A stretch of DNA of 63,373 bases, the filler included, from an uncultured Clostridia bacterium (GTDB lineage Bacteria; CAYTYR01; UBA6262): the NCBI GenBank assembly GCA_964441745.1. It is 3 parts of 3 records of this genome, joined end to end, with 100 filler letters (N's around TTAATTAATTAA, not from the genome) between each part and the next. Parts side by side here need not be neighbours in the genome. Positions count along the whole stretch, not along the records: positions 27,522 to 54,436 come from CAYTYR010000022.1; 2 more parts are not named here. The stretch is one strand, 5' to 3'. The position numbers were made by a program, and so were the translations under genes. Every line of letters begins with the position of its first letter. Position 1 is the stretch's first letter. Under the pieces are notes generated by a model. It searched no databases and was not told the DNA's origin. It saw nothing but the letters and a program-made list of their open reading frames with translations. Below are positions 2,450 to 59,866 of this stretch, piece after piece.

Positions 2450-2456
2450 TTTAAAT

Positions 2457-2491
2457 AATCTGTGTAATCTTCTTTTTAAATCTGTGTAATC
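2457..2491 (+). repeat. AATCTGTGTAATC doublet (dispersed repeat family A)
   Basis: Two identical 13-mers at 2457-2469 and 2479-2491, 22 bp apart. Confidence 0.85.
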
Positions 2492-2516
2492 AATAGGTTT
2501 TCGAAAGGTTTGGCTT

Positions 2517-5212: not shown

Positions 5213-5217
5213 ATACA

Positions 5218-5310
5218 AAGGTTGAGATTAAGGTTGAGGTAGGTGAAAAGAATATTAAGATTATTACCTTTCTTAACCTTTGTATTATTAAACCTTAACC
5301 TAAACCTAAG
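5218..5310. repeat. Imperfect palindrome built from 6-bp units (AGGTTG/AGATTA arm versus AACCTT/AACCTA arm)
   Basis: aaggttgagattaaggttgaggtagg ... aaaccttaacctaaacct in the intergenic gap. Confidence 0.55.
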
Positions 5311-5332
5311 TATTAAAAAAGGGGGAGTTAGC

Positions 5333-6136
5333 ATGAATGATTTAGAACTAAAAATGGTGGATATCCTAAAAGAGTTAAAAGATGGCTACGGCGCGATCGG
5401 CATCAGGGCGGAATTTGAAGCTGAAGGCACGAAGCTGGAAGAACTACTGCGGCTCAAGGAAATCTCCATGAAAGCCGGCGTTGGTTTGATCTTGAAAATA
5501 GGCGGCTGCGAATCAGTCCGTGATATGCTGGAGGCCAGGGTTGTTGGCGTGGATTCCCTGGTGGCGCCGATGGTGGAAACAGCTTATGCCCTGCGCAAAT
5601 ACCTGCAGGCGGTAAAAAAAGTATTTCCGGCGGAAGAATTAAAAGATCTTGAAATAATTACTAATATAGAAACTAAAACAGCTTGTAATAATCTGGAAGC
5701 TATGCTGGCGATACCGGAGATTGATCTGCTCAAAGGTATTGATATTGAACGGGTAGACCTGTGTTTTTCTCTGGGTAAGGATGAAAAAGGAATTAATGAT
5801 GACGATGTCAGTGAAATAGCGACCAAAACCATGAAAACAGCTAAAAAGAAAAATCTGATGTGTACTATCGGTGGTGGCGTTTCAGCCCATTCTATACCAT
5901 ACTTTAAAAGCCTGTCAGCAGGTACCTTGGACCGGTATGAAACCAGGAAAGTATGCTTCGACGCGTCCAAAGCATTGATGAAAGATCCGGGAAAAAGCAT
6001 ACTAAAAGCTTTAGGGCTGGAATTATTATGGCTCAAGAATAAAACTTCGTTCTATTCCGGGATCCGCAGAGCGGACCAAGAACGGATGGATCATATAGAA
6101 GAACGTTATCTCCGTGAAATAGTGGCGCTTATCTAA
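5333..6136 (+). CDS. HpcH/HpaI aldolase / citrate lyase beta-like protein, paralog 1
   Basis: KIGGCE, VAPMVET, NIET and RVD (metal-binding Glu and Asp positions). Start moved to ATG 5333, which follows a GGGGGAG SD and aligns with paralog 2. Confidence 0.7.
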   Translation: MNDLELKMVDILKELKDGYGAIGIRAEFEAEGTKLEELLRLKEISMKAGVGLILKIGGCESVRDMLEARVVGVDSLVAPMVETAYALRKYLQAVKKVFPAEELKDLEIITNIETKTACNNLEAMLAIPEIDLLKGIDIERVDLCFSLGKDEKGINDDDVSEIATKTMKTAKKKNLMCTIGGGVSAHSIPYFKSLSAGTLDRYETRKVCFDASKALMKDPGKSILKALGLELLWLKNKTSFYSGIRRADQERMDHIEERYLREIVALI

Positions 6137-6140
6137 AAAA

Positions 6141-6174
6141 AATTACACAGATGTTAAAGATGATTACACAGATT
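6141..6174 (-). repeat. Family A doublet in reverse orientation
   Basis: aattacacagatg (6141-6153) and gattacacagatt (6162-6174), 21 bp apart. Confidence 0.8.
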
Positions 6175-6195
6175 AAATCAAGAGGAGCAGATTAA

Positions 6196-6981
6196 ATGAA
6201 TTTGACAGAAATGAAGATGGTGAATATCCTGAAAGAATTACAGGAAAAATATTATGTAGTCGGAGTTAAAGCTGAGTTTGAGGCTGAAGGAACCAGGACC
6301 GAAGAATTAATGCGCTTAAAAGAGATTTGCCTGGCCGCTAAAGTACCGCTCACTTTAAAAATAGGCGGCTGTGAGGCTGTGCGGGACATGTATGATGCTC
6401 GTTCGATTGGGGTGGAATACCTGGTCGCTCCGATGGTAGAAACAGCGTTTTCGTTACAAAAATATTTACGCGCGGTAAATCTTGTTTTTCCCAAAGATGA
6501 ACAGGCAAAAGTTGAGTTCCTGATTAATATTGAAACTGAAACCGCTTATCAGAATTTTGCAGAAATGATGAAGATCCCGGAAATCAATATTCTAGATGGC
6601 ATTGTTATGGGACGGGTTGATTTTACCGGTTCAATGGGCCTGGACCGCAAAGCAGTAAATAGTGAAAAAGTATTTAATATGACCAAAGACCTGTTAACCC
6701 AGGCCAAGAAACAAAAATTAACCTGTGTAGTAGGCGGAGCTATAGCGGTTGACTCACTACCATTCTTGCTTGATCTGCCTAAAGGGACCTTAGACCGGTA
6801 TGAAACCAGGAAGATTTGTTTCCAGTGTCCGCAGGCGTTGGGAAAGGAAGCTGATAAGGGGATTTCCAAAGCCGTAGAGTTCGAGCTCGCCTGGCTGCAA
6901 AACAAGCGTAACTATTATAAAGCGATTGCTGAAGAAGATGATAACAGAATCGCGATGCTGGAAGAAAGATTTAAAAAATGA
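6196..6981 (+). CDS. HpcH/HpaI aldolase / citrate lyase beta-like protein, paralog 2
   Basis: Colinear with 5333-6136 (AEFEAEGT, KIGGCE, VAPMVET, INIET, GRVD, GTLDRYETRK). GAGGAG SD. Confidence 0.7.
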   Translation: MNLTEMKMVNILKELQEKYYVVGVKAEFEAEGTRTEELMRLKEICLAAKVPLTLKIGGCEAVRDMYDARSIGVEYLVAPMVETAFSLQKYLRAVNLVFPKDEQAKVEFLINIETETAYQNFAEMMKIPEINILDGIVMGRVDFTGSMGLDRKAVNSEKVFNMTKDLLTQAKKQKLTCVVGGAIAVDSLPFLLDLPKGTLDRYETRKICFQCPQALGKEADKGISKAVEFELAWLQNKRNYYKAIAEEDDNRIAMLEERFKK

Positions 6982-7862
6982 AAGAGACGCTGCTCTTTAC
7001 CGGTGGGACAGGTTTTTTAGGCAGTAATATCTTGCGCCGTATCATTGACCTGGATTACTCTTTAATTATTTTAAAAAGAAGCAGCTCAAATATCAACCGG
7101 ATCAAGGATCTCGCCGGTCGCTTGGAATTTTATGACCTGGACAGGGTGGATCTGGAAAAGGTGATCAAGGAACATGAGATCCATAAAATAATTCACTGCG
7201 CCACTAATTACGGCCGGGCAGAATCCAATCCCCTGGAAATCATGGAAGCTAACTTACTGCTTCCTTTGCGGTTGCTGGAGCTGGGTAAAAAATATAAAAT
7301 AAATTGTTTTATCAATACCGACACGATACTGGACAAAGGCATTAATTATTATACCCTATCCAAGAGCCAATTCCGGCAATGGCTGGAGGTTTATGCCGCG
7401 TATAGTGTCTGTATTAACATTGAGTTGGAACATTTCTATGGACCGCACGATGATGATTCAAAATTCGTCACGAATATCGTGCATAAACTCGTAAACAAGG
7501 TTGACCGGATCGACCTGACGGAAGGGAAACAGAAAAGAAGTTTTATTTACATCGATGACGCGGTAGAAGCTTTTATCAAGATCATTGGGTATAGCAATTC
7601 TTTAACTAAAGGATTTTATAATTACCAGGTCGGATCAGGAGAGAAAGTTACGATCCGGGAATTTGTGGAAATGGCTAAGAAGCTGACCAATAACAGTCAG
7701 ACCAGGCTGAATTTCGGGGCTATCCCATACCGGGAAAATGAAGTCATGGATCCCCGGCTGGACCTGTCTGAATTAGCCGCGCTGGGCTGGCGCCAGGAAA
7801 TCCCCCTATCCGAGGGATTGGCTAGAATGATCGCCATTGAAAAGAAAGGATTGCCTCAATGA
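6978..7862 (+). CDS. CDP-paratose/abequose synthase-like 4-reductase (extended SDR)
   Basis: [34 protein letters not shown], as in the Prt/Abe family. Immediately upstream of rfbE. Confidence 0.75.
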
Positions 7863-8881
7863 AAATATTAATTACCGGCGGATGCGGTTTCCTGGGTTCA
7901 AACCTGGCTGTTGCAATACCCAAAGGCAAAGAATTAATTATCTTTGATAATCTTTCCCGTTATGGTTCTACTGCAAACCTGGCCTGGTTGAGAAAGAAAA
8001 GAAATTGTACCTTCATCCATCAGGATATCAGGAACCAGGCAGAGGTGGAAAAGGTTATCAAGAGAGAAAAACCAGGACTTATTTATCATCTGGCTGGCCA
8101 GGTAGCTATGACTACGTCCATCAGCAATCCTCGAATGGATTTTGAGGTCAATGCCTTAGGATCTTTAAATGTCCTGGAGGCAGTCAGGAAGTATTCCACT
8201 GCCAGTACCATTATCTACTCATCAACCAATAAAGTGTATGGGGATCTGGAATGGACCTGTTATATCGAAAAACCTAAACGTTATGTTGCTCCTGCTTATG
8301 CTAAAGGGTTCCCTGAAACCATTCCGCTGGAATTTCATTCTCCATATGGCACGTCTAAAGGCAGCGCTGACCAGTATATGCTTGACTATCACCGTATTTT
8401 TGGGCTTAAAACAGTTGTTTTCAGGCATTCTTCAATGTATGGTTCGCGGCAATTTGCTACTGCTGACCAAGGCTGGATCGGCTGGTTTTGCCAGCAAGCC
8501 TGGGAGCAAAAAAAAGGAGTTGCCAAGGGTCCTTTTACCATTTCCGGGAACGGTAAGCAGGTGCGGGATGTTCTCTATGTTGATGACCTGGTATCGCTGT
8601 ATCTGAAAGCAGCCAAAGGGATCAAAGCGATCCAGGGCCAGGCGTTTAATATCGGTGGCTGTATGGCTAACAGCCTATCACTCCTCGAATTATTTGATAT
8701 TTTAGAGAACGAACTACATATTAAATTGAGGTACCGGAAACTCCCGCCGCGGATCAGTGACCAAAAAGTGTTTGTAGCTGATATATCCAAGATTAACCGC
8801 CTCCTGGGCTGGCAACCGCGGGTTGATAAGATAACCGGTATCAGGAAAATGCTGGTATGGATTAAAGGGGAGAAATGTTAA
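7859..8881 (+). CDS. rfbE: CDP-paratose 2-epimerase (CDP-tyvelose epimerase)
   Basis: [72 protein letters not shown] closely match Tyv/RfbE. Confidence 0.9.
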
Positions 8882-9576
8882 TGCCGGAATTTGATTTAAG
8901 CGTCATTATACCCGCTTATCTCGAAGAAGAAAACTTGAGGATAATTCTGCCCAGGCTGAAATCCGTGTTGGATACATTGTCCATTAAGTATGAGATCAAT
9001 GTCATTGATACCATGGCATCTAAGGATAACAGTAGGGAAGTGTGCCTGGCCAATAATGTAAATTACCGCTCCCGGGAAAAGAGTGATTTTTATGGGGATG
9101 CGGTACGTACCGGGATCAAATATGCCCAGGGCCAAAAGATCATTTTCATGGATGCCGATGGCTCTCATACCCCGGAGTTTATTCCGCGGCTAATGGAGTA
9201 CAGCAGAGATTTTGATGTCGTGATCGCTTCCAGGTATATAGCCGGGGGCATGACGGATAATAGTTTTGTGCTGATACTAATGAGCAAGATCGTTAATATC
9301 GTCTATTCCAAAGTATTAAATTTGCAATGCCAGGATGTCTCCAACAGCTTTAAGCTTTATCAGGCTGAAAGGCTCAAAAACCTGCATCTGTATTCTAATA
9401 ATTTTGATATCGTTGAAGAGATATTATTTAAATTAAAAAAACAAAAGCCTGACCTGACCATAAAGGAAATACCATACACTTTTAAAGAACGCATGTTCGG
9501 GCATACTAAACGAAATCTCATTGTTTTTGCTTTTTCTTATATCTATAGCTTAATTAAGCTGAAATATGGGAAATAA
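8875..9576 (+). CDS. GT2 polyprenyl-phosphate glycosyltransferase (DPM1-like)
   Basis: [41 protein letters not shown]. Start may be ATG 8881. Confidence 0.85.
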
Positions 9577-41526: not shown

Positions 41527-42621
41527 TTACTTATTTAGTACTTTTATAAATGTTTCTACGACAGTGGCATCGAATTGGGTGCCGCTGTATTTTTTTAGTT
41601 CCGCGATGGCATTATCTTGGCTTAGGCCTTGGCGATAAGGACGGTCAGTAACCATAGCATCATAAGTGTCAGCCACGCAGAGAATCCTGGCTTCTAAGCT
41701 GATGTCTTGATCATGCAACCCCTCTGGGTAGCCGCGCCCGTCGATACGTTCATGATGTTGTTTAATAGCGGTGATGATCCGCGGAGAAAGGCCGATCGGC
41801 CCCACAATTTGCGCGCTCATGGCTGAATGGCCTTTCATTAAAGTATATTCCTCATCGGTTAATTTGCCTGGCTTATTTAATACTGTTTCCGGGATCCCGA
41901 TCTTGCCTACATCATGCAGCAGAGCTGCTTGTTTGATCACTTCTATGGATTCTTCGTCCAGGTTCATGGCTTGGGCGATAGACAGGGCATATTCTCCCAC
42001 TCGGTCTACATGCCCGGCAGTATAATGGTCCTTCGCATTGATTGCCTCGGTCAGGGCATTGATTGCCCCCATGGAAGCATCCCGTAATTTTTTAAATAAC
42101 TGCGCATTATCTATGGCCACTGCTGCCTGGGAAGCAAAAATCTCAAAGATATACTGGTTATCCATATTAAAATAACCTTGTTTTTTTTGGTTGATAGCTT
42201 CCATTACTCCAATGATCCGGTTTTTCACTTTTAAAGGGACGCAAAGAATACTTTTAGTTTTGAATTGTGTGGAATCGTCGAATTTTGAAGCGAAACGCGG
42301 GTCTTTAGAAACGTCATTGATAATGAGGGGCAGCCCGTATTGGGCTACCTGTCCCGCGATGCCTTCGCCTATTTTTACCCGTATCTGTTTGATCTGTTCC
42401 CTTTTTTCACCCAAAGCCACATTAAAATAAAGTTCCTGTTTAGTCTCATCCAGCAACATTAAAGAGCTGGCTTCTGAGCTCACCACTTGAGCGGCTAAGG
42501 TCATGATCAAGTTCAATAAATTATCCAGATCCAAAGTTGAGATAATGATCTTATTCAACTCCAGCAACATGGATAATTCCTGTACGCGTTGTTCTAGGGC
42601 ATCGAAGTCTTTTTGTTCCAT
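41527..42621 (-). CDS. GAF plus HD-GYP cyclic-dinucleotide phosphodiesterase
   Basis: GAF domain (GEGIAG, DPRF, SILCVPL), then KDHYTAGH, LHDVGKIG, HHERIDGRGYP, ADTYDAM, RPYR. Confidence 0.92.
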   Translation of the reverse strand: MEQKDFDALEQRVQELSMLLELNKIIISTLDLDNLLNLIMTLAAQVVSSEASSLMLLDETKQELYFNVALGEKREQIKQIRVKIGEGIAGQVAQYGLPLIINDVSKDPRFASKFDDSTQFKTKSILCVPLKVKNRIIGVMEAINQKKQGYFNMDNQYIFEIFASQAAVAIDNAQLFKKLRDASMGAINALTEAINAKDHYTAGHVDRVGEYALSIAQAMNLDEESIEVIKQAALLHDVGKIGIPETVLNKPGKLTDEEYTLMKGHSAMSAQIVGPIGLSPRIITAIKQHHERIDGRGYPEGLHDQDISLEARILCVADTYDAMVTDRPYRQGLSQDNAIAELKKYSGTQFDATVVETFIKVLNK

Positions 42622-42656: not shown

Positions 42657-42721
42657 ATTATATAATACAGTAATGAAAACCTCAAGAATTTCTTGCAAAA
42701 TGTTTATCTTTGAGATATAGT
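42657..42721. promoter_or_regulatory. Back-to-back divergent sigma70 promoters
   Basis: Minus strand TTGAGG (42685-42680)-17-TATAAT (42662-42657); plus strand TTGCAA (42693-42698)-17-TATAGT (42716-42721). Confidence 0.6.
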
Positions 42722-42757
42722 AAAATTCACAACTCTATTTCCACTGAGAGGATTTTT

Positions 42758-44011
42758 GTGGCTAAAGCAATGATCAATATCTGGTTGATGCAAGAGCATG
42801 AGCATTTGTTCAAAAATACTATTGTCCCTGAGTTCGAGAAGCTGCATCCGGATATTGAGCTTATCTTAACCACTACCAGCTGGCATTTTTTGTGGGATAA
42901 AGTTGTGATGTTTTCCAAGCGGAAACAGGGGCCGGATGTCTTGCAGATCGGCAGCACTTGGAACGGAGTACTGGCAGAAATCGGAGCCATCAAAGATATT
43001 ACCGTAAACCTGGCCTCTATTGGCGGCCTAGACATCTTCATTAAAGAAGCGGCTAAAACCTGTGTTTTCCCCGGGACTGGCCATGTGTCTTCAATCCCCT
43101 GGTATTTAGATTCCAGGGCGTTATTTTATCGTCAGGAGATATTGGATATCCATGGCTTTACGGCACATGACCTGGGCACACTGGAGAGCCTGGAAAAAGT
43201 CAGCGCGGCGGTACATAACTTCAAAGCCGGAGATAAAATAGTTTCTGCTTTTAGTCTCTCCGGGCAGAAAGATGCCCAATTGATCCATTCACTGGCTCCC
43301 TGGATCTGGAACAATGGGGGAGATTTTATGACTCCGGATGGTAAAAAGCTCAGCTTTAATAGTCCGGCCGCTTTAGCTGGGATGGCAGCTTATTTCTCTT
43401 TTATTGATAAGTATTGTGACAAAGCTTCGATTATGCAGGGGTATGAAACTTTTCTGGATAGTTTTTTCCGTAAAGGTAATAGCTGCCTGGCTTACACTGG
43501 ACCTTGGGTAAACAGCACTTATCTTAATCCTCAACAGGAGCTTTATAATCGGGTCAGTTCGCATATTGAAGCTACTCTAATGCCTGGCGGCCCGGCTGGC
43601 CGGTTTACCTTTTTAGGAGGCAGTAACCTGGCTGTCTCGGAATTTTCCAAACATCCGGACGAGGCTTGGGAACTGGTTAAATTCCTGACACAATTACCGG
43701 TACAGGAAAGGTTCTGCGCCGCTAATCACCAATTGCCGAGCTTAGCTGCAGCTTATAAGACCAAAGGCGTCATCGATAACACGCCACAAAAAATATTCAG
43801 GGATGCCGTACAGCACGGTCGGACTTTCCCTAATCATGCTAATTGGGCGCAGATCGAGGATATCCTCATCGAATATATTCATCGTCTGCTGGTTAGTATT
43901 GCCGAAGGTATTTATACCGCAGATTTAATGCGGGAAAGTATCCAGGAAGCAGCGGCTAAGGGTAACTTGCTGTTAATCCAGGAAGAACAATGGCGTAAGG
44001 AGAAAAATTGA
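42758..44011 (+). CDS. Sugar-type solute-binding-protein fold (SBP family 1) lacking a signal peptide, paralog 1
   Basis: FEKLHPDI, GPDVLQIGSTW, SIPWYLDSRALFY, GPW, FLGGSNL. GTG 42758 follows GAGAGGA and aligns with the start of paralog 2. Confidence 0.8.
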   Translation: MAKAMINIWLMQEHEHLFKNTIVPEFEKLHPDIELILTTTSWHFLWDKVVMFSKRKQGPDVLQIGSTWNGVLAEIGAIKDITVNLASIGGLDIFIKEAAKTCVFPGTGHVSSIPWYLDSRALFYRQEILDIHGFTAHDLGTLESLEKVSAAVHNFKAGDKIVSAFSLSGQKDAQLIHSLAPWIWNNGGDFMTPDGKKLSFNSPAALAGMAAYFSFIDKYCDKASIMQGYETFLDSFFRKGNSCLAYTGPWVNSTYLNPQQELYNRVSSHIEATLMPGGPAGRFTFLGGSNLAVSEFSKHPDEAWELVKFLTQLPVQERFCAANHQLPSLAAAYKTKGVIDNTPQKIFRDAVQHGRTFPNHANWAQIEDILIEYIHRLLVSIAEGIYTADLMRESIQEAAAKGNLLLIQEEQWRKEKN

Positions 44012-45255
44012 CAAGGACAGTGATCAGTGTCTGGTTAACACATGAACATGAGCAGTTGGTACGGCATACTATTTTGCCGGATTTTAAGAAAAAATATCCC
44101 TCCATTGATGTCGTCTTGACCACGACCGGCTGGCGTTTCTTATGGGAAAAAGTGGCCATGTTCTCCAAAAAGAAACAAGGGCCGGATGTGCTGCAATTTG
44201 GCAGTACCTGGAATGGCGCCCTGGCTCAGCTAGGAGCCTTATATGATATCACCAGTCAGGTCAGCGAGATGGGTGGCCTGAATAATTTTGTGCCGGCCAG
44301 TGGCCGGCTCTGTACTTTTCCTGGCAGTAATAAGATTTCCTCAGTCCCCTGGTATGTGGATGTGCGGGCTTTATATTTTCGCAAAAATGTGCTGGATGAA
44401 CACCTGATCTCCAGTCGTGACCTGGAGACCTTGGATGATTTGATCAGAATTTGCGAAAAAGTGCATAATACCAGGATAGATAATAAGGAAATAGCAGCCT
44501 TGGGGGTGATTGGCAATAAGGATGCTCAAATCGTGCATGGTATTGCCCCCTGGATCTGGAATTACGGCGGCAGTTTTTTGCGCGCAGACGGGAGAGAGTC
44601 CGCTTTTCATGAACCAGCAGCATTAAAAGGTTTGGAAATCTATTTTAACCTGATTAATATCTATAGCAAACTAGACCTGCTGGGTCAGAATTATGAAGCC
44701 TTTACCGATTCTTTTGCGGTTAAAGGAGATTACACCTTTGCTTATTTAGGACCCTGGTTGAATAATACCCACCTTAATCCAAAATCACCAACCTATAATA
44801 AAGTAGGTGCCAGTATTCATCCAGTGGTTATGCCTGGCGGCCCGGCCGGGCGTTTCACCTTTATGGGTGGCAGTAATTTAGGTATTTCTTCTTTTTCCCA
44901 CCATCCTGAAGAAGCCTGGTCTTTTGTTGAGTTCCTCATGCAACGCCAGGTGCAGGAACAATTTTGCGCCGCTAATAACCAGCTGCCAAGTTTGCTGGAA
45001 TGTTATACTCCTTCTTATCTCTTGGATACGACACACAATAAGGTGTTTAAGGAATCAGTACGTTATGGCCGAGGGTTCCCGAACAGTCCTTATTGGGCGC
45101 CGATCGAGGATATTTTAATAGATTATATCTATGAGATGTTTATTGCCATCAGGTCACAAAGTTATTCGAAGCAGTTGTTAACAGAAAAGACCTTCGAGGC
45201 GGCAGTGAAATGCAATCTGATCCTTAAAGGCGATCCTTTTATCTTAAGAAGATAA
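44008..45255 (+). CDS. Sugar-type solute-binding-protein fold lacking a signal peptide, paralog 2
   Basis: Colinear with paralog 1 (EHE, QGPDVLQ.GSTWNG, MPGGPAGRFTF.GGSNL, FCAAN.QLPSL, IEDILI). TTGA overlap with paralog 1. Confidence 0.8.
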   Translation: MTRTVISVWLTHEHEQLVRHTILPDFKKKYPSIDVVLTTTGWRFLWEKVAMFSKKKQGPDVLQFGSTWNGALAQLGALYDITSQVSEMGGLNNFVPASGRLCTFPGSNKISSVPWYVDVRALYFRKNVLDEHLISSRDLETLDDLIRICEKVHNTRIDNKEIAALGVIGNKDAQIVHGIAPWIWNYGGSFLRADGRESAFHEPAALKGLEIYFNLINIYSKLDLLGQNYEAFTDSFAVKGDYTFAYLGPWLNNTHLNPKSPTYNKVGASIHPVVMPGGPAGRFTFMGGSNLGISSFSHHPEEAWSFVEFLMQRQVQEQFCAANNQLPSLLECYTPSYLLDTTHNKVFKESVRYGRGFPNSPYWAPIEDILIDYIYEMFIAIRSQSYSKQLLTEKTFEAAVKCNLILKGDPFILRR

Positions 45256-47191: not shown

Positions 47192-48457
47192 TTAGTTCTT
47201 ACTGGAGTCCCTGCCCCCTCCAAAATTCGCTGGCGGGCGCGGCGCCGATGTTCCAGTGGCGGGTGAAGTCAGGAGACTCTGACTGAGCTGCTGCAGCCTT
47301 TCTTTTTTCACCTGTTCAAATTGGGCCAGGGATTGGTTTGGAATAGAAGAGGCTTCAGGCAGCTTCAGGGCTAGAAAATTAATAAATTGCCGTCCTTGCA
47401 TTAAGCGAAAGTCCAGATGTGGCCCGGTAGAAAGTCCGCTGGAGCCAACATAGCCAATAACCTGACCGCGCGATACCCTGGTCCCGCTTCTGATCCCTTT
47501 GGCATATTTGCTCAAATGGCCATAGGTAGAAGTATAGCCGTTGGGATGCCGTACCTTAATGAATCGGCCGAATCCGCCTTCCCAACCGGCAAAAAGGACA
47601 GTGCCATCGCCGATCGTTGCTACTGGCGTGCCATTGGGGGCTGAGTAATCAATACCGAGATGCGGGCGGTAGATTTTCAGGATCGGATGCCAGCGCCGGC
47701 GGGTGAAAAAAGAGGAAATACGGCGATAGTTCAGCGGTGATCTTAAAAAGGCTTTCCGCAGTGACTTGCCATTAACTGAATAATAGTCTTTATGTTTAGA
47801 ATTATCTTCGAAATAAATAGCCAGGTGTTCTTGGCCGCTATTAATGTACTTAGCGGCCAGGATCTGTCCATTCTTGATGAAGCGGCCATTAGCGTAATAC
47901 TTTTCATAGACGACCGCAAAGGTATCGTCTACCCGCGGATCTGTTAAAAAGTCTATTTCATAACTAAAAATATCAGCAAAACTAAGGACTAGTTCCGGGG
48001 ATTCTCCGGAAGAGGTCATAGCTTCATAAAGATTATTTTTGATCGAGCCTTGAAAAATATTGATCTTCTTTTCCAAGGGGATATCTATTTTAGTAATAAG
48101 ATAGTTTTGCTGATCATCCAGGGCGATCTCATACTTGATGACCGGACTGGCATGATAGATGAACTTAACCAAAGAACCGATATCTTTGAGGGTAATTATT
48201 TCATAAGTATCTCCCACTTTGCATTTACGTAAGTCGAAAACAGTATCCATAGCTTTAATAACGGACTTTATCTGGAGTTCGGTTAAAGTCGTCTCAGACA
48301 AGGAACTACTGAGAGTGTCGCCCTCTTCTAAGGTATAGAGCTGAGTTTGCACGGGAGGATGTTGGCGTTGATAATTGAGATGTCTCCGGTACGCAATCCC
48401 TGCCCCGATAATTATAATAACCACAACCAGTAGTAGGCCCAGTAGTTTTTTATGCAT
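47192..48457 (-). CDS. M23 family peptidoglycan DD-endopeptidase (MepM/Csd3-like)
   Basis: N-terminal TM anchor; RHP-type motif, HLGID, YGHLS, STGPHLDF (HxxxD and HxH-type Zn site). Start moved to ATG 48457. Confidence 0.88.
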   Translation of the reverse strand: MHKKLLGLLLVVVIIIIGAGIAYRRHLNYQRQHPPVQTQLYTLEEGDTLSSSLSETTLTELQIKSVIKAMDTVFDLRKCKVGDTYEIITLKDIGSLVKFIYHASPVIKYEIALDDQQNYLITKIDIPLEKKINIFQGSIKNNLYEAMTSSGESPELVLSFADIFSYEIDFLTDPRVDDTFAVVYEKYYANGRFIKNGQILAAKYINSGQEHLAIYFEDNSKHKDYYSVNGKSLRKAFLRSPLNYRRISSFFTRRRWHPILKIYRPHLGIDYSAPNGTPVATIGDGTVLFAGWEGGFGRFIKVRHPNGYTSTYGHLSKYAKGIRSGTRVSRGQVIGYVGSSGLSTGPHLDFRLMQGRQFINFLALKLPEASSIPNQSLAQFEQVKKERLQQLSQSLLTSPATGTSAPRPPANFGGGRDSSKN

Positions 48458-48502
48458 AAATCTATATGTATCTTTTATTGCGCTTTTTGTCAAACAAAAA
48501 GA

Positions 48503-48531
48503 TGGACAAATATTTTTAATGTTGATATAAT
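48503..48531 (+). promoter_or_regulatory. Sigma70 promoter
   Basis: TGGACA-17-TATAAT, with an extended -10 TG. Confidence 0.6.
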
Positions 48532-48610
48532 CCATAATATAAAAACATAAAATAAAATCTTAAATCTGGGTAATCACTATTTATTAATACTTGGGTAATT
48601 GGAGGTTACA

Positions 48611-49783
48611 ATGAGGAAAGTATGGTGGGTGAGTTTACTCATGTTTTTAGCTTTACCAGGATACGTTGCGGCCGCGGATTGGCCAATGTTTCATTATAAT
48701 GCCGGGCATACCGGTTATGTTGAAGAACCGTTAGGAAAGATTTGGAGTTATCCTACCAGCAAGGAAATAGTATCCAGCCCGGCAGTTAAAGACGGGCTGG
48801 TTTTTTTTGGCGGCTATGATAAACGGATTTACGCCCTGGATGCCCGGACCGGAGAAAAAAAATGGGATTTTGTGACCGGGGATAAGATAAAATCTTCTCC
48901 GGCCCTGAGCGATGATTTTATACTTATTGGCAGTATGGACAAAAAATTATATGCGCTAAATGCCAAGACCGGGGAAAAAGTCTGGGAATTTTTAACCGGC
49001 AAAAAGATTGAATCCAGCCCGGTCGCCGGCGAGATCAGTTTCCTGGCAGCGCCTGATCCGGTCGGGGAAGATAAAATTGAACCAACGAAAAAGGCCATAA
49101 AAATTGTTTTAATCGGTTCTACTGACGGTAAGTTATATTGCTTAAAAGCTGAAAACGGCGAAAAGCTATGGGAATTCAAAGCCACTGATGAAATATTTTC
49201 TACCCCGGCGCTCAAGGATAATATCGTTTACTTGGCTACCGGCGGCGGCCGGATCTATGCTCTCGATGGCGCTAACGGCAAAGCCATTTGGGAAAATAGA
49301 AAACTAAGCGGCAATTTTCTGGAATCCTCTCCCGCGGTTACCGGCGATCTGCTCTTTATTGGTTCCACTGGCAGCCGGATGTACGCTTTAAAAAAAGAGA
49401 ACGGCGACAAAGTCTGGGAATTTGTGACTGAGGGCGGCTATGTTTGCTCTTCGCCAGCCGTTGTTAATGGCAAAGTCTATTTTGGAGCCAGCGATGCTAA
49501 AATCTATTGTTTGTCTGCTTCCAGCGGGGAAAAAATTTGGGAGTACAAAACTGATAAATTGATTTACGCTTCTTCGCCTGCTATCGTCAATGGCGTGTTG
49601 TATATTGGCGCGACGGATAACCGTTTATATGCTTTAGACGCTGATACCGGAACGAAATTATGGCAGTTTACCTGCGGTAAACCGGTTAATAGCTCACCCG
49701 CAGTCATAGAGGAGATAGTTTATTTTGGCAGTGAAGACGGACTATTTTATGCCCTGAACGCAAAAGCAGGGATTAAGTACTAA
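48611..49783 (+). CDS. Secreted PQQ-like (BamB-type) eight-bladed beta-propeller
   Basis: Signal peptide ending AAA-DWPMF; repeats of SSPAV....FGS.D..LYAL.A.TGE..W. ATG follows GGAGG. Confidence 0.88.
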   Translation: MRKVWWVSLLMFLALPGYVAAADWPMFHYNAGHTGYVEEPLGKIWSYPTSKEIVSSPAVKDGLVFFGGYDKRIYALDARTGEKKWDFVTGDKIKSSPALSDDFILIGSMDKKLYALNAKTGEKVWEFLTGKKIESSPVAGEISFLAAPDPVGEDKIEPTKKAIKIVLIGSTDGKLYCLKAENGEKLWEFKATDEIFSTPALKDNIVYLATGGGRIYALDGANGKAIWENRKLSGNFLESSPAVTGDLLFIGSTGSRMYALKKENGDKVWEFVTEGGYVCSSPAVVNGKVYFGASDAKIYCLSASSGEKIWEYKTDKLIYASSPAIVNGVLYIGATDNRLYALDADTGTKLWQFTCGKPVNSSPAVIEEIVYFGSEDGLFYALNAKAGIKY

Positions 49784-49809
49784 TAAGTACTATAAAAAAA
49801 GGTCTACCC

Positions 49810-51564
49810 TTGAAAGTAACAGCCATTAAAGCCCTACTACAGTATCTGGAGCAGGAACGAGTGAGGTACATATTCGGTATCCCCGGCGGGCCGTTAATGC
49901 CGCTGTATGATACTTTGTATGATACGCCGAATATCATTCCTATTCTGGCCAAACATGAAGAGGGTGCCGCTTTTATGGCTAATGGTTATGCCCGGGTGAG
50001 CGGCGAATTAGGTGTCTGTTGCGCCACTACTGGCCCGGGGACTACAAACTTATTTACCGGTACGGCAGTATGTTATACTGACTCCGTACCTGTTTTGTTT
50101 ATTACCGCCCAGGTCGCCACGGCTGCTTTTGGCAAAGGAGCCTTCCAGGAAACCACCAGTCACACTATTAATGTTGTAGAAATGATGCGCTATGTTACCA
50201 AGTTCAGCGCGATGCCCACCGATGAGCATAAAATACCTGAGCTGGTCAAAGCGGCTATCCGTAGCGCCTTAACCGGCGCTCCCGGTCCCGTCCATATTAA
50301 TATTCCCGCTAATTTTATGACCAAAGAAATTAGTCATGAACTGGTTCCCGGTGATCATTATCATGTCCGTAATCATTCCTTTGACCGCATAGCGGTAAAA
50401 GAAGCTGCCCGCTATTTATTGCAGGCGCAGCGGCCAGCCATGTTGATCGGTAATGGCGTCAATATTGCCCGCGCCAACCAGGAAGTGCGTGACTTGGCTG
50501 AACGTTTAATAATACCAGTCGCTACGACCCCTAAAGGCAAGAGCGCGTTCCCGGAGAATCATTTACTTTCGCTGGGAGTGTTCGGCTTTGGCGGCACCCC
50601 GCTGGCAGATAAATATTTATTAAGTGAAGATGTTGATGTCCTGCTCTGTATTGGCACCAGCCTGGGGGAAGTATCCACTCATGCCTGGGACCAGCGCTTG
50701 AATCCCCGCTTGGCTCTGATTCAGGTGGATATCGACGCTGAACAGCTGGGTAAAAATTATCCGGTCACGGTTGGTATTACCGGGGATGCTAAGGCGGCCC
50801 TGGCTGAAATCCTCTACCAGATTAACCGCGACTTGAAGTGGCTCACGTATACTCCCCGCATTAGCGCCAAGGATATTTATTTTTTCAAAAAACAGTATCA
50901 AACATTCATCAATGAAGAAAAGATGTATGCTGAAGAGATGCCGCTTAAACCGCAACGGCTGATCAAGGATCTCCGCGATAGTCTGCCGATTGATGCCATT
51001 GTCTTCTGTGATATCGGAAACCATTTAGCCTGGGCCATTCATTATTTTCAAACCTATTTACCGCAGACTTTCTTCCATAATTTTGATTTTGGGGCCATGG
51101 GCTATGCTACTGCCGCGGCTATCGGCGGTAAGCTGGCCGCTCCTAACCGACCGGTGATTTCTATTATCGGCGATGGCTGTTTTGCGATGAACGGAATGGA
51201 AGTAGCGACAGCGGTGAATTACAATATCCCGGTCATTTGGGTTGTCTTTAACGATGCCCGCCTGGGCATGGTTTATCACGGGCAACAGCTCCAGTTTAAG
51301 GAGCGTTATCTGGCTTCTACTTTCCAGAGAATGGATATCGCCAGGATCGCGGAAAGTCTCGGGGCCCAGGGGATTAAGGTAGAACGGCCAGGGGAATTAA
51401 AGCAGATTATGCCGCAAGTGCTGACTGCCAATAAACCGACGGTAATTGATTGTACGATAGATGCCGAGGAAATTCCGCCAATACAATCGCGGATCCAAGC
51501 GCTCAATCGATTCTTTGGGCGTAATCCGACTGGAGAGAGGGTCCATGGCAAAAAAGATTTTTAG
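49810..51564 (+). CDS. Orphan ThDP-dependent acetolactate-synthase-like enzyme
   Basis: FGIPGG, KHEEGAAFMA.GYAR, TTGPG, AFQE, GDGCFAMNG...FND. TTG start; no ilvN/ilvC nearby. Confidence 0.88.
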   Translation: MKVTAIKALLQYLEQERVRYIFGIPGGPLMPLYDTLYDTPNIIPILAKHEEGAAFMANGYARVSGELGVCCATTGPGTTNLFTGTAVCYTDSVPVLFITAQVATAAFGKGAFQETTSHTINVVEMMRYVTKFSAMPTDEHKIPELVKAAIRSALTGAPGPVHINIPANFMTKEISHELVPGDHYHVRNHSFDRIAVKEAARYLLQAQRPAMLIGNGVNIARANQEVRDLAERLIIPVATTPKGKSAFPENHLLSLGVFGFGGTPLADKYLLSEDVDVLLCIGTSLGEVSTHAWDQRLNPRLALIQVDIDAEQLGKNYPVTVGITGDAKAALAEILYQINRDLKWLTYTPRISAKDIYFFKKQYQTFINEEKMYAEEMPLKPQRLIKDLRDSLPIDAIVFCDIGNHLAWAIHYFQTYLPQTFFHNFDFGAMGYATAAAIGGKLAAPNRPVISIIGDGCFAMNGMEVATAVNYNIPVIWVVFNDARLGMVYHGQQLQFKERYLASTFQRMDIARIAESLGAQGIKVERPGELKQIMPQVLTANKPTVIDCTIDAEEIPPIQSRIQALNRFFGRNPTGERVHGKKDF

Positions 51565-53203
51565 GATGAAATCTTTGTTTGACAAGATCGTTTTTGGATT
51601 GAGCCCGGTGTTAGTCTTGGCTTTAGTATTAATGGGTATCCTCAACTATGATATTGCCAAAAATTTTATCTTTTTGTCTATTGGCAATTTATACCCGACC
51701 GTTCCGGTAAAGCTGCTGGTGCTCTCCTCTATCCTGGCTATCTCCAGTGCCGGCGTGATCGGGATGTTTATCGTGACGCGGAGGATCCTGAAGCCCTTGT
51801 ATGACTTGCTCCGGAATATCCAGCTGATCAAACAGGGTATTCCAGAACCGCTGATCGAGATCAGGTCTCATGATGAGATCCGTAAGATTGCCAATACGCT
51901 CAATGAGATGACTGCGGAACTAAAACAAAATCTCGGCAAGCTCCAGCAAAAAATGGATCATATCGCTGCCCTGCATGAGTTGAGCGAGGCCTCTTCGAAG
52001 CGGCTGGACGAAGAAAAAATATTACGTATCGCCTTGTCTACTGGCATTAAAGGGCTTGGTTTTGAACGTGGTGTGCTATATATGGTTAATCCAGAGGAAC
52101 AGGTGATTGAAGGCCGCCTGAGCGTAGGCATGACTGATTTTGTCAGTGAGCGGGAGATTCAAAAACGACGGGTGCCTTTATACGGTCCCGATATTCTCAG
52201 TGATGTAGTAAGGCATAATCGTTCATACAATGTTGTTGACCCGCCTCATGATGTCCGCTGTAACCGGCAGTTCATGAGCGAAACCAAGACCAAGGCTTTT
52301 TGCCTGGTGCCGATCAGGACCAGCGAAAAAGTGATCGGTATGTTCTCGGCCGATAATTATTTCAGTTCTAATCCGATCCGTGATGAGCAGGTGGGAAATT
52401 TGGCTACCTTTGCCAACACTGCCGGCCTGGCGGTGGAAAATGTGCGGCTTTATAATGAACTGCAAAACCGGTATGAAGAGTTAAAAATACTGGACAAATT
52501 AAAGGCTAATTTTGTGGCTAACATCACTCATGAATTACGGACGCCGCTGACCCCGGTCAAAGGATATGTAGATGCTCTGGCTGACGGCACTTTGGGCGCT
52601 TTGCCCGCAGAGCAGCTAAAAGCCCTGAACATCGTCAGGGAAAATGTCAATGCCGTTGTTAGCCGGGTCAACCAATTAGTGGATTTTGCTTTAGTTGAGC
52701 AGAAAGAACTCAAGAGTGAACTACAGCCTTTTGACCTGGTAAAATTGATTCAGCTCTGCGCTGACAAAATAGAAGATGAAGCAGAAGAAAAGGGGTTGAA
52801 GGTTTATCGCTTTCTGCCGGAGAGCCTGCCGGCAGTAAACGGCGACCCGGAACAAATTGAAAAAGTGTTGAACAGTTTATTGCATAATGCGGTCAAGTTC
52901 ACGCTGGAAGGGTATATCGCGCTGAAAGTGCAACTCCAGGACAACCTGGCCAAGATCGAGATCACCGATACAGGCATTGGTATATCCGGAGAGGAAACAG
53001 ATAAAATATTTGAGAAATTCTACCAGGTGGACGGCAGTACTGCCCGCAAGCATGGTGGTATGGGTATTGGGCTGTCCCTGGTGAAAGGTATTTTGGAAGA
53101 ACATAATTCCAGCGTCGAGGTCAGCTCTAAAGTAGGAGAAGGGTCTACCTTTACCTTCACTTTGCCTGTCGCGCCGGATGATCTCAAGCAAAAAGCACAT
53201 TAA
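51545..53203 (+). CDS. Sensor histidine kinase (2 TM, HAMP, GAF, HisKA, HATPase_c)
   Basis: DEI..IA..LNEM (HAMP), THELRTPL, HNAVKFT, DTGIGI, FEKFYQ, GMGIGLS. ATG 51545 follows GGAGAGAGG and overlaps the upstream gene by 20 bp. Confidence 0.92.
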   Translation: MAKKIFRMKSLFDKIVFGLSPVLVLALVLMGILNYDIAKNFIFLSIGNLYPTVPVKLLVLSSILAISSAGVIGMFIVTRRILKPLYDLLRNIQLIKQGIPEPLIEIRSHDEIRKIANTLNEMTAELKQNLGKLQQKMDHIAALHELSEASSKRLDEEKILRIALSTGIKGLGFERGVLYMVNPEEQVIEGRLSVGMTDFVSEREIQKRRVPLYGPDILSDVVRHNRSYNVVDPPHDVRCNRQFMSETKTKAFCLVPIRTSEKVIGMFSADNYFSSNPIRDEQVGNLATFANTAGLAVENVRLYNELQNRYEELKILDKLKANFVANITHELRTPLTPVKGYVDALADGTLGALPAEQLKALNIVRENVNAVVSRVNQLVDFALVEQKELKSELQPFDLVKLIQLCADKIEDEAEEKGLKVYRFLPESLPAVNGDPEQIEKVLNSLLHNAVKFTLEGYIALKVQLQDNLAKIEITDTGIGISGEETDKIFEKFYQVDGSTARKHGGMGIGLSLVKGILEEHNSSVEVSSKVGEGSTFTFTLPVAPDDLKQKAH

Positions 53204-53300
53204 AGATATTGAGTCCTTAAAAAGAGGTCTTAGCAGCAGGCAAAGGACCCTGTTTATCGGGAAGCGTATTGGGGTCAGGGCTAAACTATCAACAAAGTGC

Positions 53301-53329
53301 TTGACCGTTGAAAGTGGAGATGATAAAAT
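53301..53329 (+). promoter_or_regulatory. Sigma70 promoter of the transposase (probably a leaderless transcript)
   Basis: TTGACC-17-TAAAAT with an extended TG; only 6 nt separate the -10 from the ATG, and there is no SD. Confidence 0.6.
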
Positions 53330-53335
53330 CGCCGT

Positions 53336-54331
53336 ATGTCGAGACCACTCAGGATAGAATACGCAGGAGCGATATATCATATTACCAGCCGCGGAATAGA
53401 CCGGCGCGAGATCTTTCGGGATGCTAAGGATTATGAGCATTTTGTACAATTATTGAAAGAGGGAGCTGATTTTTATAAAGTGGAAGTGCTGGCATATTGT
53501 TTAATGCCGAATCACTTCCATTTTTTATTAAGTACCAAGAAGCCGAATCTCAGCCGTTTTATGCAGCGGATGAATACAGCGTATACCCGGTATTTTAACT
53601 ATAAATACAAGCGGGTAGGCCCCTTAATGCAGGGCCGGTATAAAGCGTTGCTGGTAGGGAGTCCTGAATACATAGTGACCCTGAGTAGATATATCTATTT
53701 AAACCCGGTAAAAGTTAAGCTGGTAGCCAAAAAGAGCCAGGTTGACCAGGAATTGCTGTTAAAAGGGTATAAGTGGAGCAGTTATGCCGGGGTACTTAAC
53801 CCAAAGAAGCGGTCGCGATATTTCCAATGTGAACGAGTACTGGAATTTATCGGCGGGGACAATGAAGCTGGCCGGAAAAGATATGAAGCTTATGTGCTGG
53901 CAGGCATAAGCACAACAGAAAACCCCATGAGTGGCGTTAAGAGCCAATTTCTGCTGGGCTCTGAAGAATTCATTAAGCAGATTAAAGAGGTTTACCTTAA
54001 AGGGCAGGATTTAAGACAATTTAATCCAAAAGTTCGGGAGATAAGGCAGGCAGCAATCGCCGAAATAGCCGGGAAAGTAGCGGCAGAATATGGAGTAGAT
54101 CCGGCAGAGCTGCTTAAGGCTCGCTCAAAGCACAAAGAAGCTCGAAAGGTATTAATCGAGCTCAGTTACCGGATATGCCTAGAGCATAAGACCTTAAGAG
54201 AGATAGGAAGAGAACTTGGAGGGATCAGTGGTGCGGGAATAGGACTGGCGCATACAAGACTGAAAGAAGAGATCAAGAAGGATAGAGGATTAGAAGAAAA
54301 GATCGCAAAAATAGCGGCTGTAATATGTTGA
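53336..54331 (+). CDS. REP-associated tyrosine transposase-like protein (Y1/HUH) with a C-terminal DnaA-C-like HTH
   Basis: MSRPLRIEY.GA.YHITSRG, YCLMPNHFH (HUH), QGRYK, RYIYLNP (catalytic Tyr), YKWSSY, C-terminal VAAEYGV...LREIGRELGG. Confidence 0.9.
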   Translation: MSRPLRIEYAGAIYHITSRGIDRREIFRDAKDYEHFVQLLKEGADFYKVEVLAYCLMPNHFHFLLSTKKPNLSRFMQRMNTAYTRYFNYKYKRVGPLMQGRYKALLVGSPEYIVTLSRYIYLNPVKVKLVAKKSQVDQELLLKGYKWSSYAGVLNPKKRSRYFQCERVLEFIGGDNEAGRKRYEAYVLAGISTTENPMSGVKSQFLLGSEEFIKQIKEVYLKGQDLRQFNPKVREIRQAAIAEIAGKVAAEYGVDPAELLKARSKHKEARKVLIELSYRICLEHKTLREIGRELGGISGAGIGLAHTRLKEEIKKDRGLEEKIAKIAAVIC

Positions 54332-58885: not shown

Positions 58886-59866
58886 ATGAAGATAACAAAA
58901 GCGTTAGCGCTGGTTTTGTTTGCGGTCATAGTTCTGTCATTTCCTTGGACACTTCAGGCCGAGTCTGCCCAGAAAGTACTATTAGCGGTTTTTTATGACA
59001 ACCCTGATTATGTTAACTGCCGGAATATTTTTCGGGAAAAACTGGCTAAAGAAGCTAAGCAAGCCGGCCTGAACATTGAATTCCTGATCCTGGATACCCA
59101 GGGTTCAAAAGGATTATTCCTGAACCAGTTAAAAAAGCTGGAACAGGAAATCGACCTGATCTTTACGGCTGGTACGCCCAATTGTCTGGCGATCAAGGAA
59201 TCAGGAATTACCAAACCAGTAATTTTCACCGCGGTAGCTGACCCGGTAGGGGAGAAGCTGGTGGAAAGCTTAGTTCGTCCCAATACTAATTTTACCGGCA
59301 GTCATTGCGCAGTTTCTGCTGACCGTCAATTAAGCGCTCTTCTTTATGTCCTGCCTAAAACCAAGAAGATCGGAATTTTATATAATGCCGATGATCCTGC
59401 ACCAGTAAGCCAGGTCAAAGCCTGGAAAGAAGCAATGGCCAGGATCAGGATGAAAGCGGTAGAATTTTTTATTCCTAAAGAGGCCAATTCTGTTGATTCG
59501 CTCGCTGCTGCCGCCAAGCCGATGGTGCGCAAAGTCGATGTCCTGGTTACCGTGGCTGATGCTAAAATATCAGCTTTTGGTGAAGGGGTCATCGCTGTGG
59601 CTAATGTCCATAAAATACCAACCTATGCTTCTTTAAACAGCTTAGTTAAAAAAGGCGCTCTGTGTTCCCTTGGTTTTGATTTTGTAATGGGCGCAGAGAT
59701 CACCGTCCCGCAAGCTATAGCTGTTTTAAAAGGAGGGGATCCAGCAATCATGCCGGTGATCACTAATTCTGAATATCACCTGCTCCTCAATCAAAATACT
59801 GCCCGGGTCATCGGGTTGGAAATTCCGGCTAATGTTCTTAAAACCGCCGCTGAGATAGTGGAATAG
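58886..59866 (+). CDS. ABC-type substrate-binding protein (ABC_sub_bind/DUF534-like), no adjacent permease
   Basis: Signal peptide; DLIF..GT, PVIF.AV.DPV...LVESL.RP..NFTG, IGILYN, LN..TA..IGLEIP. Confidence 0.85.
   Translation: MKITKALALVLFAVIVLSFPWTLQAESAQKVLLAVFYDNPDYVNCRNIFREKLAKEAKQAGLNIEFLILDTQGSKGLFLNQLKKLEQEIDLIFTAGTPNCLAIKESGITKPVIFTAVADPVGEKLVESLVRPNTNFTGSHCAVSADRQLSALLYVLPKTKKIGILYNADDPAPVSQVKAWKEAMARIRMKAVEFFIPKEANSVDSLAAAAKPMVRKVDVLVTVADAKISAFGEGVIAVANVHKIPTYASLNSLVKKGALCSLGFDFVMGAEITVPQAIAVLKGGDPAIMPVITNSEYHLLLNQNTARVIGLEIPANVLKTAAEIVE

Follow-up and report, generated by a model that had tools for sequence, protein, structure and literature searches.

A BbmA-family thiamine diphosphate enzyme whose gene overlaps that of a short GAF sensor kinase: a candidate synthase-receptor pair

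Known bacterial signal synthases use S-adenosylmethionine/acyl-acyl carrier protein, pyridoxal phosphate (PLP), LuxS-type or peptide chemistry; the synthases CqsA and LqsA are PLP enzymes, and the corresponding receptors CqsS and LqsS are multi-pass proteins. Enzymes resembling acetolactate synthase (ALS) and dependent on thiamine diphosphate (ThDP), namely ScyA, NzsH/CqsB3 (carbazoles), XclA and Thzk0150 (sattabacin), form acyloins from aryl- or alkyl-pyruvates, and in the carbazole and xenocyloin clusters the acyloin synthase is encoded beside genes resembling that of ketoacyl synthase III (KAS-III). An enzyme can also furnish the ligand of a kinase encoded in the same operon, as in BphO/BphP, where a heme oxygenase supplies the small molecule bound by the GAF domain of the kinase. 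Transporters and enzymes serve as co-sensors for some kinases, and in LuxP/LuxQ a transporter-less periplasmic binding protein serves a kinase. To our knowledge, no signal made by a ThDP enzyme and read by a dedicated kinase has been described, and a literature search for ThDP enzyme, autoinducer and histidine kinase gave, among the matches listed, no paper that combined a ThDP enzyme with an autoinducer or a kinase. Here we describe a locus within a 63,373-nucleotide (nt) stretch of DNA from assembly GCA_964441745.1 (the window), in which the gene of an ALS-like ThDP enzyme overlaps that of an orphan sensor histidine kinase. A first-pass annotation of the window had proposed that these two genes form a signal synthase-receptor pair comparable to the alpha-hydroxyketone quorum-sensing systems CqsA/CqsS and LqsA/LqsS (PMC3376566).

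Three tightly packed open reading frames (ORFs) on the plus strand were found, by ORF calling and Pfam analysis, to encode a beta-propeller, the ThDP enzyme and the histidine kinase, and the 20-bp overlap of the last two genes noted in the first-pass annotation was confirmed (Table 1). The closest genome locus, L001, belongs to an Elusimicrobia metagenome-assembled genome (MAG) and is syntenic with the window from an FlgT-like gene through the kinase. Among 60 genomes related to that of L001 (the relatives; incomplete genomes cannot show absence), full-length kinase orthologues with 71-91% identity were detected in six, and enzyme orthologues (E<=1e-120, 85-96% identity) were detected in exactly the same six. 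The order of M23 peptidase (minus strand), propeller, enzyme and kinase was observed in all five of the other relatives fetched, so that synteny holds in 6/6, and the 20-nt overlap was retained in 5/6; G002 is the exception, with a different C-terminus on the enzyme and about 130 nt between the two genes. Of the three proteins, the enzyme is the best conserved in five relatives (91-96% identity), ahead of the kinase (82-91%) and the propeller (75-84%). Since the trio is kept in six species-level genomes, and the overlap in five of them, the propeller-enzyme-kinase arrangement is not chance; the three genes probably constitute one operon in an Elusimicrobia-type genome, and the functional coupling of enzyme and kinase is, in our estimation, well supported and highly probable. 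The adjacency of the ThDP and kinase genes, with which the first-pass proposal was said to stand or fall, is conserved in the six relatives, and the wider enzyme family is enriched for signalling neighbours, as described below.

The enzyme displayed the features of the ALS/pyruvate oxidase ThDP superfamily, namely the TPP N, M and C domains, the catalytic Glu (in HEEGAAFMA) and the ThDP-Mg motif GDG...ND, and both the Glu and the ThDP motif were invariant in the A1 sequence set. It scored 441.8 bits against the IlvB model TIGR00118, under the cut-off of 538.35, with the true ilvB genes of the relatives scoring 591-866 bits, and none of the NCBIfam models among the 25 matches shown of 55 reached its cut-off. 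The ESM Atlas gave for the enzyme only generic clusters named 'thiamine pyrophosphate-binding protein'. The closest solved relative was BbmA (8x3x, 8x3y and 8xod; 550 bits over residues 3-570), as compared with 311 bits for CsmA (8x3z) and about 260 bits or less for structures of acetohydroxyacid synthase (AHAS). In the alignment, RQWQQ of canonical IlvB fell on YHGQQ of the window enzyme, with Gly491 at the position of the Trp that determines acceptor specificity in AHAS. This replacement likely gives a larger acceptor pocket, and Gly491 corresponds to the residue mutated in PDB entry 8xod (BbmA-G484F). A relative's ilvN and ilvC sequences gave no tblastn match in the window, in keeping with the first-pass description of an ALS-like gene lacking these partners nearby; ilvD was not searched for. 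Furthermore, 6/6 operon-bearing relatives have, apart from this enzyme, a canonical ilvB scoring above the TIGR00118 cut-off. ilvN stands beside it in 5/6 (in the sixth, the contig ends at ilvB), and both ilvN and ilvC adjoin it in G001, so that the case considered fatal in the first-pass annotation, in which the enzyme is the only AHAS of its genome, did not materialize in these relatives. Because the enzyme falls below the TIGR00118 cut-off, has BbmA as its closest solved relative, carries Gly in place of Trp and is accompanied in the relatives by a separate canonical ilvB, we conclude from these comparisons that it is not the AHAS of branched-chain amino-acid synthesis. Assignment to the ScyA type was likewise rejected, as the ScyA-related model NF035927 gave 296.7 bits against a cut-off of 1000.

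Further ALS-like genes were noted in the course of this analysis. The window itself carries, at 3398-5212 (plus strand), a second non-canonical ThDP paralogue of 604 aa that is 35% identical to a relative's IlvB; it lies within a cluster of nucleotide-sugar/polysaccharide type (732-9576) containing four NAD-dependent epimerase/dehydratase genes, two HpcH/HpaI-aldolase-like genes, a metallo-beta-lactamase-fold gene and a GT2 gene, and its product may be an acyl-branched sugar. A third paralogue, similar to this one, is present in G001, G004 and G005.

The kinase possesses, as the first-pass annotation had stated, two transmembrane helices joined by only about 20 residues and followed by HAMP and GAF domains, according to hydropathy and Pfam. 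Its start codon is preceded by GGAGAGAGGG, and the orthologues start at the same place; the short loop contains a conserved GNLYPxVP motif. The HAMP domain aligns with that of the long Elusimicrobia kinases described below. The sequence also has the characteristics of a HisKA two-component kinase, with the H-box HELRTPL together with N, G1, F and G2 boxes, and enzyme and kinase both look active, judging from the catalytic Glu, the ThDP motif and the kinase boxes. An AlphaFold model of the GAF domain (pLDDT 88.5) matched small-molecule-binding GAF domains in Foldseek at TM scores of about 0.76-0.80; since the GAF types matched are many and score similarly, no ligand can be inferred. A predicted complex of the ThDP enzyme with kinase residues 79-310 scored 0.00 (mark 0.32), which is uninformative either way. 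No response regulator had been seen next to the operon, and indeed a receiver-domain (REC) profile matched no ORF of at least 80 aa anywhere in the window or in flanking sequence from five relatives. No orthologue of the HTH_17-REC regulator found in related loci (below) was detected in five relatives, and the related genomes gave 16-22 REC-domain matches each.

The third component, which leads the unit, is a protein of 394 aa. Its start proposed in the first-pass annotation, ATG 48611, gives MRKVWWVSLLMFLALPGYVAAADW, a Sec-type signal peptide without a lipobox Cys, and its Pfam matches are PQQ_2 and Beta-prop_ACSF4, in agreement with the earlier description of a secreted beta-propeller. We rejected its identification as BamB, as the BamB model TIGR03300 gave 204.9 bits, under the cut-off of 285.2, and the cleavage region of the signal peptide contains no Cys; its PQQ repeats resemble the propeller of an AfsK kinase model. 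The propeller gene adjoins the enzyme gene in the six relatives (65-84% identity) and in 0 of the other 78 family loci, and is specific to this narrow lineage.

The features of the unit are collected in Table 1. The candidate promoter matches 11 of 12 consensus positions and is the best site in 48300-53500, on the basis of a consensus match alone. Nine terminator-like matches were obtained, all weak, at about the level of shuffled sequence and none after a gene end. A tRNA scan and an Rfam search (gathering score) over the window (1-63373) returned nothing. By Pfam, the neighbours of the operon are the M23 peptidase gene on the minus strand and, directly 3' of the kinase, a gene at 53336-54331 (plus strand) encoding a Y1_Tnp (IS200-like) domain fused to a DnaA-C-type helix-turn-helix (HTH), which is preceded by a promoter-like site at 53301-53329. 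The regions retrieved from five relatives did not show this Y1_Tnp/HTH gene 3' of the kinase; the downstream genes are not conserved among the relatives, and therefore the unit ends at the kinase.

Table 1 Positions of the propeller-enzyme-kinase unit and its candidate promoter in the window
Feature	Positions	Strand	Basis or remark
Sigma-70-like promoter, candidate for operon	48503..48531	+	TGGACA, 17 nt spacer, TATAAT, TG extension
Secreted PQQ-repeat beta-propeller (BamB/AfsK-propeller-like)	48599..49783	+	Probable start ATG 48611
BbmA-family ThDP-dependent carboligase-type enzyme, 584 aa	49810..51564	+	TPP_enzyme N, M and C domains (Pfam)
Enzyme/kinase overlap, 20 nt	51545..51564	+	ThDP enzyme stop TAG 51562-51564; kinase ATG 51545
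Orphan HisKA-type sensor histidine kinase, 552 aa	51545..53203	+	Pfam; H, N, G1, F and G2 boxes
Transmembrane helix 1 (about residues 14-35), loop of about 20 residues (36-55), transmembrane helix 2 (about residues 56-78)	51584..51778	+	Hydropathy, alignment
HAMP, residues 77-128	51773..51928	+	Pfam E 1.7e-4, 22.3 bits, below cut-off 25
GAF, residues 155-297, candidate ligand sensor	52007..52435	+	Pfam
HisKA (residues 320-385) and HATPase_c (residues 433-543), transmitter core	52502..53173	+	Pfam

A database search placed the enzyme in a large family (50-58% identity) distributed across Elusimicrobia, Deltaproteobacteria, Nitrospirota and others, and all family clades examined matched BbmA best among solved structures. 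We analyzed 79 genome loci, the highest-scoring ones among at least 583 relatives in GTDB representatives and not a random sample. A gene with a signalling domain stood at offset -1 in 43/78 loci, as compared with 38/363 at offsets -8 to -2, which served as the internal control; a signalling gene was directly adjacent in 50/80 loci and lay within five genes in 67/80, and a kinase core was found within five genes in 46/80. Four recurrent architectures around the family enzyme were distinguished. Architecture A, in Elusimicrobia and some Nitrospinota/Rokubacteria, consists of an HTH_17-REC regulator, the ThDP enzyme, often an O-methyltransferase, a binding protein of the SBP_bac_5 family, a cupin and a hybrid kinase of about 1000 aa with a weak dCache match followed by HAMP, GAF, PAS, HisKA, HATPase and REC. 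Architecture B, in Chloroflexi, several other phyla and two archaeal MAGs, combines a STAS protein, the ThDP enzyme, a 5TMR-LYT/SpoIIE phosphatase, a flavin adenine dinucleotide (FAD)-linked oxidase and an RsbW-like kinase (loci L010, L011, L013, L018, L023, L033, L036, L038, L039, L041, L045 and L050), and in one database ORF of 687 aa, P0096, STAS and TPP domains are found together. Architecture C, in Proteobacteria, Nitrospirota, Mariprofundus and Geobacter, comprises a TonB receptor, two truncated citrate-synthase-C-like proteins, the ThDP enzyme, a PF04392 protein and a hybrid HAMP-PAS kinase, to which the gammaproteobacterial members add a REC-REC-PAS-GGDEF-EAL protein. In architecture D, in Myxococcota, a kinase gene lies immediately upstream of the ThDP enzyme gene, which is followed by genes of two citrate-synthase-like proteins (architectures C and D together: L024, L027, L028, L031, L042, L048, L071 and L073-L078). 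Apparent fusions of 650-800 aa in the ORF calls were rejected as out-of-frame N-terminal extensions in high-GC loci, where shadow ORFs and false N-terminal extensions occur in the calls, and a search for longer forms of the enzyme gave only P0134, an ALS-like protein of 1062 aa with an intein-splicing domain that is 37% identical to the window enzyme.

The relation of the window unit to architecture A was analyzed in a quick maximum-likelihood tree of 78 rows, in which the only outgroups, canonical IlvB and the third paralogue, are flagged as long branches meeting. The family was separated from the outgroups with support 99, and the window and L001 (support 100) fell inside a 28-row clade consisting mostly of Elusimicrobia/architecture A members (support 96). 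In most rows of this clade a HAMP-GAF kinase is encoded 2-5 genes downstream of the enzyme, and the HAMP-GAF region of the window kinase is 30-36% identical to these hybrid kinases, with which it shares GAF motifs such as GLGFERGxLY, KRRVPL..DIL, DP..D.RCN, AFCLVPI and FANxAGLAxEN; a sister clade also has SBP_bac_5 and a downstream kinase (L032, L037, L040, L047 and L079). No homologue of the regulator, methyltransferase, SBP_bac_5 protein or cupin of the long cassette was found in the window. Because the tree places the window within the architecture A clade and the kinase GAF motifs are shared, the window unit looks like a reduced form of the Elusimicrobia cassette: most simply, the regulator, methyltransferase, binding protein and cupin would have disappeared from its lineage, together with the periplasmic, PAS and REC domains, so as to leave the enzyme and a kinase core of HAMP, GAF and transmitter, and the tiny external loop of the kinase is a derived reduction. 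Among the loci, an O-methyltransferase was found in 14, a cupin in 15 and SBP_bac_5 in 26. The SBP_bac_5 proteins mostly carry a signal peptide, and a pair of ABC-ATPase motifs was found in the flanks of 0/26 of these loci; they are therefore more likely sensor accessories than parts of an uptake system. The O-methyltransferase and the cupin, encoded between regulator and kinase, look like tailoring steps. For the long cassette, this gene content favours a small molecule that would be made and sensed over a nutrient taken up and degraded.

Our proposal for the window, which we put forward tentatively and somewhat short of calling it probable, is that the enzyme makes a compound that the kinase reads. 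The cytoplasmic enzyme would decarboxylate a 2-oxo acid and join the resulting fragment to a second carbonyl compound, yielding an acyloin-type small molecule (an alpha-hydroxy-ketone or an alpha-hydroxy-beta-keto-acid). The translationally coupled kinase, which is almost devoid of a periplasmic part, would sense this product or a close derivative, either in the membrane or by means of its cytoplasmic GAF domain, and would then phosphorylate an unlinked response regulator, and the secreted propeller may act as a detached periplasmic co-sensor. The comparisons themselves establish the structure of the genes and their placement in families, the distinction of the enzyme from AHAS, the joint inheritance of the pair and the association of the whole family with signalling genes; the reaction, the relation of ligand to receptor, the identity of the regulator and what the propeller does are inferred. 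Thus, of the synthase-receptor pair proposed in the first-pass annotation, the non-AHAS nature of the enzyme and its conserved coupling to the kinase stood, and the notion of its product as a signal or a kinase ligand found no support of its own.

Several observations weigh against this proposal. The sensor modules are not the same from clade to clade (GAF kinases, HAMP-PAS kinases with PF04392 proteins, STAS/SpoIIE/RsbW and GGDEF-EAL), and since a conserved ligand-receptor pair would be expected to keep one type of sensor, such variety also fits an enzyme that is a regulated output. No signalling gene was found within five genes in 13/80 loci, and in five loci, including those of Ktedonobacter and Streptomyces, a KAS-III-like gene is found instead, in a setting that resembles ordinary natural-product clusters. 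With enzyme and GAF domain both in the cytoplasm of one cell, the loop would be cell-autonomous, which is not obviously cell-to-cell signalling. The window lineage is without the accessory genes of the long cassette, so that reasoning from the cassette to the window is indirect. The roles of signal synthase for the enzyme and of receptor for the kinase are suggested by gene context and sequence; the ORFs of the family loci were called crudely and clustered, with Pfam run on representatives only and signalling domains detected by home-made profiles, and the ilvB/ilvN comparison was made in the six relatives, whose enzymes are 85-96% identical to that of the window.

The direction of the coupling is accordingly where the readings part, as the enzyme may supply the ligand of the kinase or may itself be the regulated output. 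In the latter case, which is the main alternative and which we consider somewhat less likely, a metabolic or secondary-metabolite enzyme would be controlled by the signalling proteins of its cluster, and the kinase would sense a substrate, a stress or, through the propeller, an envelope cue. The varied signalling architectures around one enzyme family fit this at least as well, members beside KAS-III-like genes look like ordinary biosynthetic clusters, and a STAS gene lies directly upstream in 12/13 rows of one clade, to which the STAS-TPP ORF P0096 may be added; P0096 is, however, a single sequence and a possible frameshift artefact, the STAS and ThDP genes of L013 being 1 nt apart. Moreover, the window enzyme is coupled with the kinase rather than with a regulator, no other pathway gene is there to be controlled, and the GAF module has stayed with the enzyme while all other parts of the cassette were lost. 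The same STAS loci bear on the idea, to which we give little credence, that the ThDP protein is a trigger enzyme or co-sensor, which would contact the kinase (or, in the sister clade, STAS) and signal the flux of its 2-oxo-acid substrate. A fused STAS-ThDP ORF and STAS adjacency in 13 loci would suit such contact, as would the gene overlap, which suggests translational coupling and would favour matched amounts, and the enzyme's rank as the best-conserved protein of the locus in the five relatives; among the longer proteins, however, no fusion of the enzyme with a kinase, GAF or REC domain was found, a blank that is weak evidence.

An overflow or catabolic role, in which an AlsS-type enzyme would be a valve for pyruvate/2-oxo acids and the kinase would sense 2-oxo acids or pH, is comparably improbable. 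The family does lie within the ALS superfamily, and the phosphatase of the STAS clade carries 5TMR-LYT, a domain of the pyruvate-sensing LytS/BtsS-type kinases, with a gene for an FAD-linked oxidase two genes downstream of the enzyme. Set against this, AlsS models fall far below their cut-off (NF006378: 304 bits vs 510), no acetolactate decarboxylase was found among the Pfam-scanned window genes next to the operon, and the change of Trp to Gly argues for an acceptor larger than pyruvate. That the two genes have no functional link, their adjacency being a historical accident in one narrow lineage, we regard as most improbable. In its favour, the exact order of propeller, enzyme and short kinase is limited to six close species-level genomes. 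Against it, the pair shows identical presence and absence in the 60 relatives and keeps its overlap, enzyme homologues as distant as about 50% identity have a homologous GAF kinase with them, and signalling genes are enriched family-wide over the internal offset control.

A broader and rather unlikely generalization is that the BbmA-family carboligases are an unrecognised, phylum-spanning class of ligand or autoinducer synthases, whose acyloin-derived product would be read by a neighbouring sensor, the window operon being a minimal version with enzyme, receptor and propeller co-sensor. The sensors may then be the GAF kinase in the window, an orphan binding protein with a hybrid kinase in other Elusimicrobia, sets of PF04392 protein, kinase and TonB receptor in Proteobacteria, and partner-switch modules in Chloroflexi and archaea. 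If the enzyme is instead a regulated output, a single enzyme would stand under two-component, partner-switch and cyclic di-GMP control in different lineages. The comparative pattern offers several small clonable cassettes, and it indicates that many genes of uncultured phyla annotated as 'acetolactate synthase large subunit' are neither AHAS nor housekeeping genes.

Other genes of the window were also noted. At 42710-44011 and 44008-45255 (plus strand), two tandem overlapping genes encode SBP_bac_1/SBP_bac_8 proteins that lack signal peptides and share about 47-49% identity; L001, L098, L099 and L100 carry one copy or more at the same place, and no permease or ATPase gene adjoins the pair among the genes scanned. 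These signal-less solute-binding proteins, to which the first-pass annotation had drawn attention, are real; they lie outside the operon, behind three genes on the opposite strand. At 41527-42621 (minus strand), a protein with GAF and HD_5 (HD-GYP-type) domains is likely a phosphodiesterase that acts on cyclic nucleotides and has a GAF sensor of its own. The PF04392 (ABC_sub_bind) family, which in Proteobacteria adjoins the ThDP enzyme and a hybrid kinase, has an isolated member in the window at 58886-59866 (plus strand); the housekeeping genes nadC, birA and coaX separate it from the operon, and a Cpn60/GroEL-family gene follows.

Finally, we compared the window unit with the known systems. 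With BbmA and CsmA the enzyme shares the three TPP domains, a similar length and the motif GMVYHG. It is not identical to BbmA, and the family locus scoring best against BbmA is that of Ktedonobacter (578 bits). A literature search for BbmA and CsmA by name, including the review PMC12247030, returned nothing relevant, 'bbma' matching unrelated acronyms or an amylase gene, and three short motifs from the BbmA alignment had no match among the collected family proteins; the novelty of the window pair would be smaller if BbmA itself proved to have a signalling role. IlvB/IlvN belong to the same superfamily and share with the window enzyme the domain order, the catalytic Glu and the ThDP-Mg motif, but differ in the specificity Trp (Gly here) and in the adjoining ilvN/ilvC. 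As in the case of the acyloin synthases, compared here by description only, some members of the family adjoin KAS-III-like genes; the window operon instead has no KAS-III, cyclase or tailoring gene, and the partner of the enzyme is a sensor kinase. The operon is analogous to BphO/BphP in its organization, although the window kinase lacks the PAS-GAF-PHY photosensory core and has no sequence relation to BphP, and the SBP_bac_5 proteins of the long cassettes may act like LuxP for LuxQ, again without a sequence relation. The likeness to CqsA/CqsS and LqsA/LqsS, in which a synthase is likewise encoded beside a membrane sensor kinase and whose product class, alpha-hydroxyketone/acyloin, the window enzyme is presumed to share, is a functional analogy without homology, as the window enzyme depends on ThDP and the kinase has two transmembrane helices with HAMP and GAF domains. 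What is new in this enzyme/sensor-kinase pair, in part supported by the present analysis, is thus a ThDP enzyme in the position of the synthase.

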